A stretch of 63,795 nt of DNA, the filler included, from Globobulimina sp. (Eukaryota): assembly GCA_003354225.1 (NCBI GenBank). It is 50 parts of 50 records of this genome, joined end to end, with 100 filler letters (N's around TTAATTAATTAA, not from the genome) between each part and the next. Parts side by side here need not be neighbours in the genome. Positions count along the whole stretch, not along the records: positions 30,683 to 31,860 come from PIVH01021598.1; 49 more parts are not named here. One strand, 5' to 3'. Both the position numbers and the translations under genes were made by a program. This document shows, piece by piece, positions 11,642 through 31,860 of the stretch (its first letter is position 1; the number at the start of each line of letters is the position of its first letter). Below the pieces are notes generated by a model that saw nothing but the letters and a program-made list of their open reading frames with translations, was not told the DNA's origin and ran no database searches.

Positions 11642-12793
11642 CATTGACATAGCAACTGGCAACATATTGGATGAGGATCAAAAAGACCATGTTTCAAATA
11701 CACTTTTTCATTGCCAGTTCTATTATTACTAATATCACCAATACTCCTTTACTTCCATTGGTAATCAAGCAAATGAGCCCAATTCCTAGGTTTCATGGCA
11801 AACAAAACAAACAATGCAGTACTTCTATATTTCTTTAATGCAGTACTTCTTGTTACCTTTATTTTTAACGTTGGTCAAAATATTTAATAATTCGGTTCTC
11901 CAAAATCTATGTCACTAATTTAATGTGATACAAGTAGTGTTGACTAAATTTATTATCATCATAAATAATTCATCATTCCACAAAATAATATTGCATCATT
12001 TGCATGTGAGTAAATATATATGCGCTCATAACACGAAGCATGATGATCGGATTAGATTTATAAACTTGTTAGGTGTTTTTAATTTTACTTTGTTAGATAC
12101 CATCCTTGAAACCTAAACAGTTATTGCAATGATCAACAATTTCCTTCAAAATTGATCGCCAAAACTGATGGTGGATCAGATTTATATATCATCACAGATC
12201 AGATCGATGGTACAGTACATTGGTACTGCACCATGACAAATTGCATGTGTTTTGGATAGTAATTCTTTCACAAATATTAGCGATATAATGCATATGCGCG
12301 AAGTACAGATTACATCGATACAAAAACAAAAATCAAAACCACTCAACAAACGACGACGACGTATATTGGACTTAAATAAATATTAATAATAGCCATCGTT
12401 ATTTGCCATACAGATTACAGAAATGTTGTTGCTATATATATTAGATCGGAGATGTGTTTTTGTATGTTTTTGTTTATACGGATAATCGCATAATAACAGA
12501 ATGTCATTGCAGCAGATACTACGATGTAATATATGCAACAAAACAAATGTGAAAGAATTACGTACCATCACTGATGATATATAAATATGATCCACACTCT
12601 CCAGGTTTGGCGACCAATTTGCAGTGACTAACAATCTGCTTTCCTAACTATACAAATGTAAAAAAAAATTAAGTTCTATTTAGTATCATCNNNNNNNNNN
12701 NNNNNNNNNNNNNNNNNNNNNNNNNNNNNNNNNNTTAATTAATTAANNNNNNNNNNNNNNNNNNNNNNNNNNNNNNNNNNNNNNNNNNNNATT

Positions 12794-13484
12794 TTACAGA
12801 TACACATAGGAAGTAAGACCATTTTGTGTCACTGTGAGGATCATAGTACCGGTACCAACAGCAGCTGACTGTGTACCGTTATAAAAGGACACCAATAATG
12901 GAACACGAAACTTCTTATAGCCAAATAAACAGTTACCGTCACTTGTCATATGTCCATTCACTCCAGAATCCATTACCAGAGGTCTAGAAACACTGGAAAT
13001 GTTTGAAGTATCAATGGGGGTACGGTAGCGGCGACCATTTTGGAAACGTTTGTGTCTTCTGGACGAAATACGACGAGGGGAGGTGCACTCATGACGATAA
13101 TGTCCTCTTCCACCACATCTCCAACACATAACATAAGAGGGGGAAGCATTGTACCTTTTAGGAAACATAAATTGACGATTTCCATGCATTTTCGGCGATT
13201 TTTGACGATTTTCGTCGAATTTCGGCTTTTTAGCATAAAGTTCACGATTTACTGACCGAACAGACGATGGAGGCGTAGGTACACTCGACTGGGGACACAT
13301 TTGAGGCACTGTACTTGACACAAACACCATGGTTTTCTGACGACTGTCCTTCAAAAATGGTTTTCTTACTCTTTTGGGGTCCATATTTCTCGGGTTAAAA
13401 ATCGTTCACAGATGCAGATTTTTCACTCAAAATAACAGTTACTTTTCACTGGGAACAGGGAAGGCTTGCATAGGACCATAACCA
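12794..13484 (-). mobile_element. Ty1/Copia LTR retrotransposon 5' part: PBS-like site, short gag with zinc knuckle, aspartic protease with premature stop
   Basis: CWRCGGRGHYRHEC (CCHC), VMDSGVNGHMT...VSFYNG...AVGTGTM protease; GGTTATGGTCCTA at 13483-13471. Confidence 0.85.
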
Positions 13485-14068
13485 AGCGGACGTCCAGGAA
13501 TTCCAACTAAATTAACATGGAATATCCAAGTCCAAAAATATCAGAGGCGATGTTGGTGATCGAATAAATTAACCAAACTGTTGTTGTTTTAGTTCCTCAG
13601 TAAAGCATATTGTTCTGCACTGTTCCTGTAGTCTTTTCAATAATATTTTACTACAAACAAATAACAGATATTAACCAAATATGGGTACATAACACGCGTA
13701 ACGTCGCGTAACTCAGAAGTCTCCACAGAATATAATATAATAAACAGGCAACTCGCAAAAGGCGCAGTAAACCATTTCTACGTGCAACAAGACCTGCACG
13801 TCTACATACAAATGACGCTCTTAAATATATACGACGCACTAATTCTGAATACAAAGTGCGTGGTTCAAGACCGTTTTACGACTCTCCATCTTAATATTAA
13901 TATTAGCTAAACTAACTGGAGAGTTCGGTTGGCTCATATCAAGATTACTTACCCAGAGCCCAACTTACNNNNNNNNNNNNNNNNNNNNNNNNNNNNNNNN
14001 NNNNNNNNNNNNTTAATTAATTAANNNNNNNNNNNNNNNNNNNNNNNNNNNNNNNNNNNNNNNNNNNN

Positions 14069-20458: not shown

Positions 20459-21465
20459 ATACTATGTACAATTAAGAATATGTCATACAGTATGTGGCTA
20501 TGTGCATTGTGCAAGGATAACATATATGTAATGTAATATGCACATACGTTTACTGTACGATAATTAAAGCCAGAACTCATAGAGTCCGGTATATCAATAC
20601 GATAAAAATGCCAGTCTGGATTACAATTATTCTCACCTTTATCCAAATTACAATCCCATTGAGATTGCATTAATATGACAGCACCGCCGTATGTTATATT
20701 ATGTGATACATTTGTTATTTTACCGTGTGTTGCAGCGCGAATTATTTCATCCAATGAAAATAGATTATACCCCTCAGCGGGTTTGCCATTATGATTAACG
20801 TCTTCTGTGTTTGACCTCGATACTCCAAACGCAGAGAAGGTAATGTCCACTTTAACAAAGGCGGTAAATGCGCCAATATTAACAATGGGAACTTGGGCAG
20901 ATTTGTCATCAGTTTCAAGCGGACACCATGACTTTACTTCGCATCGATCATTGGCTGCATAAGTGCGATTATAATGCGATGAACAGTTATTTGGTGACTG
21001 GCTGTAACAACAGTTGCCAGTATATATGCCCTGACTCTTTGGCGTATACGTACCCACTTTGCATACATGTGTATAATTAGCTGTATTACATGCGCCGACA
21101 TCTCTATTTCCGGGACAATTATCACGTATTTGATTCGGTGTTACTATCATTGATGTTGTAATGAAGAAGACATCTTCTTCGATTGACGGGATTACTAAAT
21201 CCATAGCATCGTATACTGTGCCAGCAGTCGTGTTAAGTGCACCTCCGACAGATCCGGTTCCTTTCAATTTAACAGAAGTTGTGCCTGTTACTGGATCAAA
21301 TTCTTGATAGCCTCTCTCAGCATATACGGTAAATACACAGATATATATTAATACAGATATAAGACAGGTATAATAAACAATGGCTAATCTGCGATTTTTA
21401 ACCCTAATAAAACGTGTAGATTTATACACACAAAGTATATTTTCTAAACTTTCCCAAAAGGTCAT
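20459..21465 (-). CDS. P2X ATP-gated ion channel, 3'-partial
   Basis: YKSTRF, TM1, GYQEFD, SVKLKG, VTPNQ, CEVKSWCPLE, WDCNLD, GFNYR, then a GT intron. Confidence 0.95.
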
Positions 21466-21822
21466 GGTCAAAGAGTTTTTTTTTTATAATCTGCTTTCTC
21501 AATAATAATGCGAAGATTGTTACTTCAAAAATTATTGTGAATGTAATTCTGTGTAATTCAATTATTGTTGTGTTTGATTTACTAGTACCGGTATGCAAAA
21601 ACAATGTAAATTAGCACACAACGTTTTAGCTTAGTGNNNNNNNNNNNNNNNNNNNNNNNNNNNNNNNNNNNNNNNNNNNNTTAATTAATTAANNNNNNNN
21701 NNNNNNNNNNNNNNNNNNNNNNNNNNNNNNNNNNNNTTAAAAGCTTTTTATTTTTCATCAAAAAAACACCCAACCTCACATTATTCATTTTTACAACATT
21801 TCCAACAACTCTTAATCTTTGA

Positions 21823-22523
<701 letters not shown>

Positions 22524-23014
22524 TAATTATTACAGGCACAGATATTTATTGCATTAATTTCAAATGTATTTGATCTCAAGAAAAAGTAGAATAAGAAATT
22601 GATTTTCTGTTTTATTTTTTTTTTGTTTGTTTTTAATCGTTTGCAATCTTGTTTATTTCAATTTTAATAATAATTCAATTAATTTTTGTTCTACGCGTGA
22701 GAAATTTGCAAAGCATATGAAGTGCAAGGATAGAAAAACGTTTTTGACTACTTTCCTGTAGATTGGTTCGGAGGAGACGTTTTAGATCCTATGTATTGTT
22801 ATCACCATCTCCCTGGTGTGCGAGGATAATCTAAAACTATTTGTGAGGTGAAACAAACATATGATATTATTGTACAACGAATTACGGAAACCAACAAAAA
22901 TACAAAATGAGTGCNNNNNNNNNNNNNNNNNNNNNNNNNNNNNNNNNNNNNNNNNNNNTTAATTAATTAANNNNNNNNNNNNNNNNNNNNNNNNNNNNNN
23001 NNNNNNNNNNNNNN

Positions 23015-28126: not shown

Positions 28127-29282
28127 CGGACAGCGTCTGCAGTTCACCGACCAATACCATAAGCAATGTAGCGTTTATCGTTTTAAGCGGAGGAGAGAAC
28201 TTTAATAATCAGACTGCAGGTACAGAGGATATATCATCTGTAACAGAGATAAATGTTTATGCGCCGGATGTGGACATTGATAATTATACTGCGGACGTGA
28301 ACAGATCAGACGCATATGATGACCTGAGCGGTCTCATTGTCCATTCCCGCCGTCCTCTTATTTCTCTTTCCTTTGTAGATGTCATTGGCCAATCCGTCCC
28401 ATAAGCTGAGGAACAACGCTTTGTTGTAAATGTCGGCGGAATGGTCGCTGCGCGAACGCTGCGAAAACAGCGCATCAATCTCGTCGATCCATATGATACT
28501 CGGTGCCATCTTCCGTGCTAAACTGAATAAGGCAGAGATGTATTTCTGTGAATCGCCGTACCATTTCGACATCAAACGGCTCATATCCACGTCTGCAGTG
28601 TCACGAAATTTATGGAAATTTAGCGCAGGTTATCCTTGCACAGCGTATATAGCGCCTAACTGAAGAAGGTAGCGTTGGTTTCGCGAGCAATGGCTTTGGC
28701 CATCATAGATTTCCCAGTTCCTGGCGGTCCGTGGAACAGCACACCTAATGGCGGTGCGCAAAGACGCGAGGAACCGGTCAATTGAGGGTAGATTAAGGGG
28801 ACTAGCACAGTTTCGGTCAGATCGCGTTTGATGTGCTCTAAGCCGCCGATGTCGGAGAATTTGACGTCGATGGAAGCGGGCAATACGATGAGGTCTAACA
28901 AGGAGTCTTCGTACGTGTTGGTGTTGAATGAGGTGATTTTGCGACCGGATTTCTTCATTTTTTTGAGTAAGACACGTTTGCAATGTTCTGCAATGTCTTT
29001 GCGGTTCTGCTCAGGGTCGGTTTGCTGGGCGATTAGGGATTTGAACATATAGCCCAAGGCCGCTAAGGAGCCGCCGATTAATAGAAACTCGGAGATTATG
29101 GACCACCAATCTTTGGAATGTGTGATGACTAATTGCTGAGCGGCGTTGGGGATGGCGGACGATGCGTTTTTGTGAGAGGAGCGCAGGTTTAAGTGCGGAG
29201 GGCGACTGTTTGTGGTTGATGTTGCTGTTGAAAATAAAGAATCGATTGGTACATTGGTTTGAGATGAATTAAAGTGTGCCAT
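28127..29282 (-). CDS. ATAD1: ATAD1/Msp1-type membrane-anchored AAA+ ATPase, intron-containing, 3'-partial
   Basis: N-terminal TM, FSDIGGL, GPPGTGKS, SKWYGDSQK, IIWIDEID, FLSLWDGL. Confidence 0.88.
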
Positions 29283-29544
29283 GATAATGTTGCAGAGGTT
29301 TTGANNNNNNNNNNNNNNNNNNNNNNNNNNNNNNNNNNNNNNNNNNNNTTAATTAATTAANNNNNNNNNNNNNNNNNNNNNNNNNNNNNNNNNNNNNNNN
29401 NNNNTAATGATTTCCAGGGGTTTCTGAGCGTTACCGCTCCCATAGGTTGCAAGAGAATATAATTTATATCATATCATATGAGACTGCAACTAAATCAAAA
29501 TTAATGCAGAAATAATTTATACATTTATACATTTATTATTAATC

Positions 29545-30582: not shown

Positions 30583-30697
30583 NNNNNNNNNNNNNNNNNN
30601 NNNNNNNNNNNNNNNNNNNNNNNNNNTTAATTAATTAANNNNNNNNNNNNNNNNNNNNNNNNNNNNNNNNNNNNNNNNNNNNGACAGTAGACATTTC

Positions 30698-30871
30698 TCA
30701 AGGAGTGACGTAACAAAACTTTACTTCCTCTTCTAGGAGACCAGTTTTGAGTCGACAACGCCTGGGACACTGGATAGTACAATCGATCAATAGATAGCCA
30801 TAGGGATTGGCGTTATGGCATAATTGATCACGTATAGCCATTTCGTAGGCTTCGGCCACATAATACAAATA
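30698..30871 (-). CDS. Polinton packaging ATPase C-terminal fragment
   Basis: EAYEMA...PYGYLLID...RLKTGLL...YVTP matches the DA...PYGYLLID...RLRT...Y-x-P terminus. Confidence 0.7.
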   Translation of the reverse strand, partial: YLYYVAEAYEMAIRDQLCHNANPYGYLLIDCTIQCPRRCRLKTGLLEEEVKFCYVTP

Positions 30872-30958
30872 CAATTGATCAATGGACAGACAAATACAAA
30901 AATTATTTTTAGTGACTTCTAATTTTTCCAAAATTTGTGCTATTTGACAGCAATCCAT
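30872..30958 (-). CDS. Polinton adenain-like cysteine protease N-terminal fragment
   Basis: MDCCQIAQILEKLEVTKNNFCICLSIDQL; ATG overlaps the capsid stop (TGATG). Confidence 0.6.
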
Positions 30959-31860
30959 CACATAAAGTCCGTGGTCACCTCGGCGTTGGAACGGACATAG
31001 ACATTGGCGTCGGACTCCTGCAAAACAATAATAATATACTACTTTACGCGCCATAACAAATAGGCGCCCACGTACCAGTATAAAAATAAAAGACGTAGCC
31101 TCGTCCAAATTTTGTTGAAAGTCCATGTGAACTTGCAGGTCGGACACTCGAGGCGTTTCACCGATTTCCGATTCTCCGGCTAGATGACTGCGACTCAGAT
31201 CGAATGTGATCACTCCGAATCCGTCCAGGTATTGCCCCGCGTTTATTCCATTGGAATTCCCCGGTTTGGTACTACCGGTTGTGTGGAGCATCGCCATATA
31301 CATTTCAACCAGATCCTTAGCCGCTCGGTGGTATTTATACGGTACGGATGGGAACGATTCCGATCCGCTTACCAGCTTGATCTGACCGCGGTCGGGCCAT
31401 TGTATAAACCAAGGGCTAAAAACGAATACATATAATCATTTTAAACAATGTTAAATGCTTGCTTTAGAGTATAGTCTCCGAGACGTCTTTTCGTGGTGAG
31501 AATGAACAAGTAAACAGTTTTCGGCAACATTCTGTCGGTAAACAATGTCTCCCTGACTACGCTGGTGCCACCCACTCGACTGAACTCTATCATTTGGTGA
31601 TACTTGCAAGGGTAGACGGCTGGGGCGAATCTCAATCCATTAATAATGTCCATATGAAGGAGTGGGGTTAATTTATACTTTCGAACCAAGAGCTTGATAC
31701 TCACTAAAAATATATCGATAACGATGAGAAGGACAACAGATATACTTACAAATTTCGATTTTCAACTTGATATCTATCGCCTCCTCCACTTCCTGGATAG
31801 TTTCTTTGGCCGCTTCTGTCGCGGTCGCCGCTTTAGTCACCTTCTTTTTGACCATTACCG
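30958..31860 (-). CDS. Polinton/Maverick (adintovirus-like) major capsid protein, 5'-partial; introns 31704-31749, 31416-31462 (GC-AG), 31018-31075
   Basis: Spliced product LLVRKYKL..AVYP..LPKTVY..GDYTLNPW..GINAGQYLDGFGVITFDLS..ESDANVYV..VTTDF follows the Polinton MCP C-terminal pattern. Confidence 0.85.

Follow-up and report, generated by a model that had tools for sequence, protein, structure and literature searches.

Evidence for a Polinton/Maverick-like capsid gene split by three short spliceosomal-type introns in a Globobulimina sp. genome assembly

We analysed a stretch of 63,795 bases from a Globobulimina sp. genome assembly (hereafter, the window), and the evidence from one of its contigs supports a new Polinton/Maverick-like capsid module, one with spliceosomal introns, apparently inherited, inside the capsid gene. 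With a probability of roughly 0.8, the contig derives from a multi-copy eukaryotic element of the Polinton/Maverick-like (adintovirus-like) type with an intron-split capsid gene, for which we infer splicing, virion formation and the identities of a protease and an ATPase. The term Polinton-like is applied here to a fragment of 1178 bp; the hallmarks of Polintons (protein-primed family-B DNA polymerase, retroviral-type integrase, terminal inverted repeats and target-site duplication) lie beyond its reach. The window is made of 50 unrelated pieces of 1177–1179 bp each, joined by runs of N with the TTAATTAATTAA stop linker. The pieces are concatenated in order of length; adjacency within the window is biologically meaningless and neighbouring pieces give no genomic context. 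The capsid gene fragment is wholly contained in the piece at positions 30683-31860, on the minus strand.

We distinguished four exons separated by three inserts of 46, 47 and 58 nt (GT-AG, GC-AG and GT-AG, respectively); no insert length is a multiple of three, and each insert shifts the homologous reading into another frame. When the exons are joined (31858-31750, 31703-31463, 31415-31076 and 31017-30958), they form a frame of 750 nt that runs uninterrupted through 249 codons to a TGA. Exon 1 (31750..31858) is partial, stays open to the contig end at 31860 and would encode, ahead of the C-terminal jelly roll, a linker and the first strand region. It is followed by intron 1 (31704..31749; 46 nt, GTAAGT..TTTTTAG, phase 1, 30% GC) and by exon 2 (31463..31703; P0001), which shares 72% identity with the library protein P0005. 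Intron 2 (31416..31462; 47 nt, GCAAGC..TTTTTAG, phase 2, 23% GC) is the GC-AG case, and exon 3 (31076..31415; P0002), the putative core of the C-terminal jelly roll, is matched by 15 library proteins at E <= 1e-3. Finally, intron 3 (31018..31075; 58 nt, GTACGT..TTTTGCAG, phase 0, 40% GC) precedes exon 4 (30958..31017), which holds the last 19 codons and the TGA stop (30960-30958). A first-pass annotation had proposed introns of these lengths, one of them GC-AG, and a single frame assembled from three ORFs. We recovered the same coordinates, lengths and minus-strand orientation, as well as the peptides GDYTL/N/PW and FIFIL/ESDANVYV..VTTDFM rebuilt across the junctions (slashes). The ATG at 31855 was considered as a gene start and rejected: homologues still align on its upstream side, and the frame is open right up to the contig end, 5 nt beyond it, so exon 1 must be internal and the 5' half of the gene falls off the contig.

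We searched for homologues of the exons with an exhaustive HMMER scan over 1.84 billion representatives and obtained 19 library proteins at E <= 1e-3. In the protein libraries the family is present only as short unnamed ORF fragments, and a word-indexed protein search with exon 3 found no longer protein. The link to full-length proteins came from a profile comparison: the near-family profile (A3) aligned with the profile of P0020, P0023 and P0030 (full-length, 441-447 aa) with a probability of 98.6% in hhalign (E 7.6e-16, 266 columns). P0020 itself is a 441-aa relative, only ~27% identical to the product of the contig. Its AlphaFold2 model had a mean pLDDT of 52.5, rising to 70-88 across most of residues ~264-425, which are the counterpart of the exons of the contig. 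The model of P0005, a closer proxy, reached a mean pLDDT of 40.1 and was not used for structure search.

The P0020 model was compared exhaustively with 48,161 PDB representatives using VIA-align, and the 12 best chains were all double-jelly-roll capsid or scaffold proteins. The highest scores belonged to Sputnik (Z 9.3, rmsd 3.5, 146 aligned residues), EhV-201 (8.6), mavirus (8.5) and ASFV p72 (8.4), followed by faustovirus and PBCV-1 (8.2 each) and the adenovirus hexon (7.8); SGIV, FLiP, PRD1 P3 and the orf virus scaffold protein were also among the 12, while unrelated beta-sandwiches appeared from Z 6.2. Ten of the 12 rows cover only model residues ~243-425, again the portion encoded by the exons of the contig, and the mavirus and hexon rows begin at residue 31 with a poor fit (rmsd 16-17). 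A Foldseek search of the same model against BFVD gave 54 matches at E <= 1e-3, and the best was a Maverick-derived protein (UniProt R9XLG5) of Cotesia sesamiae Mombasa bracovirus, at 24% identity over 439 columns (E 5e-17), followed by adomavirus LO7, an adintovirus capsid, and virophage and giant-virus (NCLDV) capsid proteins. The TM-scores of these matches were low (0.16-0.37), a consequence of the weak P0020 model. Cotesia bracoviruses are described as carrying Maverick remnants (PMC2646287, PMC5704228). A language-model look-up of exon 3 pointed to Preplasmiviricota, next to clusters in which 31% of members carry DJR-like_dom and 10% Capsid_NCLDV, with recognition below the usual level.

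Sequence profiles returned nothing comparable: the exons and the 19 homologues had no Pfam, PHROGs or PDB sequence match, relaxing the cutoff to E <= 10 brought no match of the exons, P0005 or P0020 to DJR-like_dom (PF21738) or Capsid_NCLDV (PF04451), and neither PHROGs with P0020 nor a search of PDB sequences with the P0020 family profile yielded a hit. On the modelled fold, the spliced product is supported as the C-terminal half (second jelly roll) of a Polinton/Maverick-like double-jelly-roll capsid protein. The first-pass annotation had called this half of the major capsid protein, and the call holds through a chain that runs from the exons to the P0020 family by hhalign and from there to double-jelly-roll capsids by VIA-align and Foldseek. 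The double-jelly-roll assignment is thus reached via P0020, in which only the C-terminal roll is confidently modelled, and the first roll lies outside the contig.

The three inserts have the features of spliceosomal-type introns. All of them have canonical GT/GC-AG ends and T-rich acceptor tracts, none removes a homologous residue, and GC content is 31.8% in the introns versus 47.3% in the exons. At junction 1, P0023 (residues ~211-240) spans the joint with no gap there. At junction 2, P0005 and P0014 align to the spliced product without gaps, and P0005, P0014 and P0019 are uninterrupted at that point. At junction 3, gapless alignments were obtained with P0007, P0025, P0014, P0020 and P0023, down to the C-terminal ..VTTDF motif, and exon 4 matches the C-termini of P0007, P0025 and P0014 without a gap. 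A search of public runs turned up the sequence in no RNA run. No spliced joint was seen among the contig pieces of the public run X1 that aligned to the contig, and these pieces appear to be DNA.

Differences among related copies in X1 followed the predicted exon-intron structure; the figures rest on the best-supported 40 of the 64 differences to the contig. Both listed indels (2/2) fall in introns: a 1-nt insertion in intron 2 of one related copy, and in intron 3 a 2-nt insertion that is accompanied by three substitutions in a single copy (another copy was too diverged to align from 31024). Intron 1 held 7 listed differences in 46 nt, versus at most 10 across ~220 nt of adjoining exon sequence in the same X1 contig. 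Within exons, 17 of the 26 listed differences were synonymous, against an expectation of 22% (binomial p 3e-6), and in exon 4 all five listed differences were synonymous third positions of the spliced frame. We also considered retention of intron 3, by which capsid and next gene would be read as one protein, given that the frame of exon 3 remains open across intron 3 and exon 4 (30962-31075) into the downstream ORF. This was rejected: the open frame is no evidence for such a fusion, because 13.7% of shuffled sequences behave alike by chance and one copy carries the 2-nt insertion.

A decaying pseudogene, in which the frame breaks would be random insertions that merely resemble introns, could account for the truncated gene downstream of the capsid, and PMC8097293 describes most vertebrate Maverick copies as degraded, with insertions called introns by software. 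Such a pseudogene is nevertheless extremely improbable here: three of three inserts are AT-rich and canonical at both ends with T-rich acceptors and no loss of homologous residues, the exons are free of stops and show a strong synonymous excess, and the position of the third intron recurs in relatives, as described below. Hence the evidence supports three spliceosomal-type introns, one of them GC-AG, with actual splicing predicted from these sequence features. Under the proposed mechanism, the capsid protein would be produced only after the host spliceosome has processed its transcript in the nucleus.

Among the 14 library proteins whose alignment reaches the end of exon 3, 10 read a V (GTN) at that point and then continue into unrelated residues (P0008 being an ambiguous case among the 10), and in the other four the homologous C-terminus continues. 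P0022 is an eleventh case of a V followed by an unrelated tail. This is what an ORF caller gives on running into an intron that starts with GT. Since homology stops in most metagenome relatives at this one position, and with a GTN codon, intron 3 seems old, and these protein ends suggest that a phase-0 intron 3 is common to relatives that are only 40-70% identical. At least one intron position being apparently shared at that distance points to inheritance within a viral lineage.

We put even odds on a broader proposal: a deep, previously undescribed lineage of Polinton/adintovirus-like viruses whose capsid genes would carry inherited spliceosomal introns, with one phase-0 intron conserved at 40-70% identity, and which would depend on host nuclear splicing and be systematically missed by ORF-based discovery, with its assumption that viral genes are intronless. 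If so, part of this virus world is invisible to ORF-based pipelines, expression of such elements takes place in the nucleus and relies on the spliceosome, and intron positions can be used as markers of descent within a viral lineage. Scans of a viral contig collection and of a genome contig collection, together with a phage tblastn, found no relative; the absence of the family from the viral contig collection searched is consistent with pipelines overlooking an intron-bearing lineage.

P0020 is encoded on L001, a metagenome contig of 2.5 kb on which an arginine-rich ORF, the capsid gene and a Peptidase_C5 ORF follow each other in this order. The Peptidase_C5 (adenovirus endoprotease) ORF scored 28.1 bits against a Pfam cutoff of 21.3, and PHROGs gave nothing for this protease. 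The ORF directly upstream of the capsid gene (L001:200-685) has 161 aa, a very arginine-rich C-terminal half and no Pfam match; it may be a DNA-condensing core protein. A metagenome scan with P0020 recovered related loci of 2.0-2.5 kb only, and the 14-kb contig on record for P0020 was not among them. Both in L001 (2021-2025) and in our contig (30960-30956), the capsid stop overlaps the start codon of the gene behind it as TGATG, in two relatives with capsids that are only ~27% identical. This conserved overlap may couple translation of the next gene, presumably the protease, to that of the capsid. In the reading that we propose, the capsid stop overlaps the start of a gene whose counterpart in this distant full-length relative is an adenain-type maturation protease.

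The first-pass annotation had described the TGATG overlap as one with the protease. The overlap stands, but the ORF behind it is not an intact protease: about 32 codons of the next gene (30865..30958, minus strand), whose ATG overlaps the capsid stop, are followed by an ATPase-like end. These first codons are probably the N-terminus of a maturation protease. Codons 1-32 had no Pfam match, and BLASTP gave no alignment of the downstream ORF to the L001 protease. X1 copies that diverge from the contig at 30950 and 30916 read MDC-EQLTRVLTGL and ATKNYFRACL where the contig reads MDC-CQIAQILEKL and VTKNNFCICL, respectively (hand translation); because the diverged copies keep the peptide pattern, codons 1-32 appear to be a conserved coding start.

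For the remaining codons, ~33-87 (30864-30698), HMMER found matches to the C-terminal ends of P0011 (4e-11), P0015 (1.4e-6), P0017 (1.5e-5) and P0018 (2.6e-5). This segment (30698..30864, minus strand) comprises the last 55 codons and the stop of a P0018-like gene, which is probably an A32-type packaging ATPase. P0018 shows Walker-B-like and sensor-like motifs by eye, and its neighbours in a protein atlas are clusters with Pox_A32 in 26-29% of cases, which we take as a lead only. The ATPase-like part had no Pfam, PHROGs or PDB profile match (searched with P0018, P0011 and P0015, and with the ATPase-like family profile against PDB), and a word-indexed protein search with P0018 retrieved only P0018 itself. 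The downstream ORF is therefore best described as a fusion in which the 5' end of the gene behind the capsid gene meets the 3' end of a probable packaging-ATPase gene.

The joint between these two parts, at 30864/30865, is in frame and has 1 nt of shared sequence. An X1 contig that is 99% identical departs from our contig at 30864 and continues ..YDISIDKANI, and another X1 contig, on the ATPase-like side, enters from ..YPKVGPGGK-N, which fits the family motif YPGK.K.NY. No X1 contig bridges the joint, and the depth in bins 30843-30922 is fully explained by contigs that end at 30864 or 30916. The joint may be either an internal deletion in one copy or a chimera of assembly or amplification; in both cases, only ~32 codons of the protease-like gene remain in the contig, and the 3' end of a probable packaging-ATPase gene follows directly.

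Run X1 contained 27 contig pieces at 85-100% identity to the contig: 7 at >=99%, 11 at 95-99%, 5 at 90-95% and 4 below 90%. One X1 contig reaches ~550 nt past 31860 on the upstream side. Runs X3 and X4 of the same sample had no matching sequence. These copies bear on whether the fragment belongs to a mobile element or to a domesticated (exapted) host gene derived from a capsid, in which introns would have been gained after capture. Introns and purifying selection would be expected of a host gene, and the adjacent viral genes in the contig are truncated. Domestication is very unlikely all the same, as 27 pieces in one run represent many diverged copies, the next gene begins by the same compact overlap as in L001, other X1 copies run on into fuller protease-like and ATPase-like frames, and many diverged lineages from metagenomes appear to have an intron position in common. 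The preference of the first-pass annotation for a viral cassette over a domesticated capsid is borne out by these diverged copies and by the pieces of probable capsid-maturation and packaging genes on its flank.

An adintovirus-like virus that is exogenous and not integrated, has spliced genes and was sequenced along with its host would also carry a module of capsid and adenain-type protease. Its GC could lie above that of most pieces, and the contig has 43.2% GC versus 26-40% in most other pieces of the window; moreover, a near-identical piece of 151 nt was found in the run of an unrelated marine sediment metagenome. We consider such a virus unlikely, since copies that differ by up to 15% in one sample, together with the internal joint, look more like an integrated family. 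A multi-copy Polinton/Maverick-like element, probably integrated, is the reading that we retain.

Among the other pieces of the window are AT-rich ones with short introns and genes for ordinary eukaryotic proteins (Arf, Ras, P2X receptor, PH, SAM, DnaJ and amino-acid transporter). The Arf GTPase gene of the AT-rich main organism (21737-22914; 178 bits) has two introns of ~68 and ~53 nt with GTATG donors, by reading; the homologue of the P2X ATP-gated channel (20459-21636; 181 bits over 341 aa) is one uninterrupted ORF. A few pieces reach 44-47% GC, and this higher-GC minority may stem from a second organism. One of them (28127-29304; 47% GC) encodes an AAA ATPase in two exons split by a ~68-nt GTTAGG..CTGCAG intron. 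The piece at 12791-13968 has 40% GC and may be a Gag-Pol fragment of a retroelement, judging by zinc-knuckle and Pol beta-barrel matches below threshold. Since short introns occur in both GC classes, they give no pointer to whether the element sits in the main AT-rich organism.

A literature search outside subscription journals and supplements found, for spliceosomal introns in Polinton capsid genes, only the work on dinoflagellate introners. The nematode gene name F54H12.2, considered as a lead, had no literature match and was dropped. The element resembles animal Mavericks/Polintons and adintoviruses in its double-jelly-roll fold (via P0020), in the adjoining adenain-type protease (on L001) and in the probable A32-like ATPase of its gene set (a lead). 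It differs in that its capsid gene has three introns: intact vertebrate Mavericks are described as having intronless ORFs (PMC8097293), and nematode Mavericks as having intronless core genes, with introns only in cargo genes (bioRxiv 10.1101/2022.07.12.499685). Its capsid sequence is also unlike those of Mavericks and adintoviruses, with a similarity too low for any Pfam model.

The capsids of virophages (Sputnik 3j26, mavirus 6g45) and NCLDV (PBCV-1, ASFV p72) are the best structural matches of the C-terminal roll (Z 8.2-9.3); in contrast, identity among the structural matches is only 5-10% (7-10% for the chains named here) and there is no Capsid_NCLDV Pfam match. The introns also set the element apart from the virophage-like elements of Cafeteria (EMALE), reported as having no introns (PMC8547959). 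Surveys of endogenous Polinton-like viruses and virophages call uninterrupted ORFs and cite the absence of introns (PMC10120064, PMC9356565). A parallel exists with dinoflagellate Maverick-Polinton-like proviruses, in which spliceosomal introns lie within integrated elements; according to PMC11957031 and PMC12166617, those introns are transposon-like introners, recent insertions acquired mostly after integration, whereas the introns described here are 46-58 nt long and at least one position is apparently shared among relatives.

Adenoviruses offer a further comparison, as they combine nuclear expression via the host spliceosome with a hexon-type capsid (Z 7.8 to our model) and an adenain protease, all of which would have counterparts in the predicted element. 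The late transcripts of adenoviruses are spliced, and splicing joins leaders to uninterrupted capsid coding regions. In the element described here, unlike in adenoviruses, the capsid coding region itself would be split.
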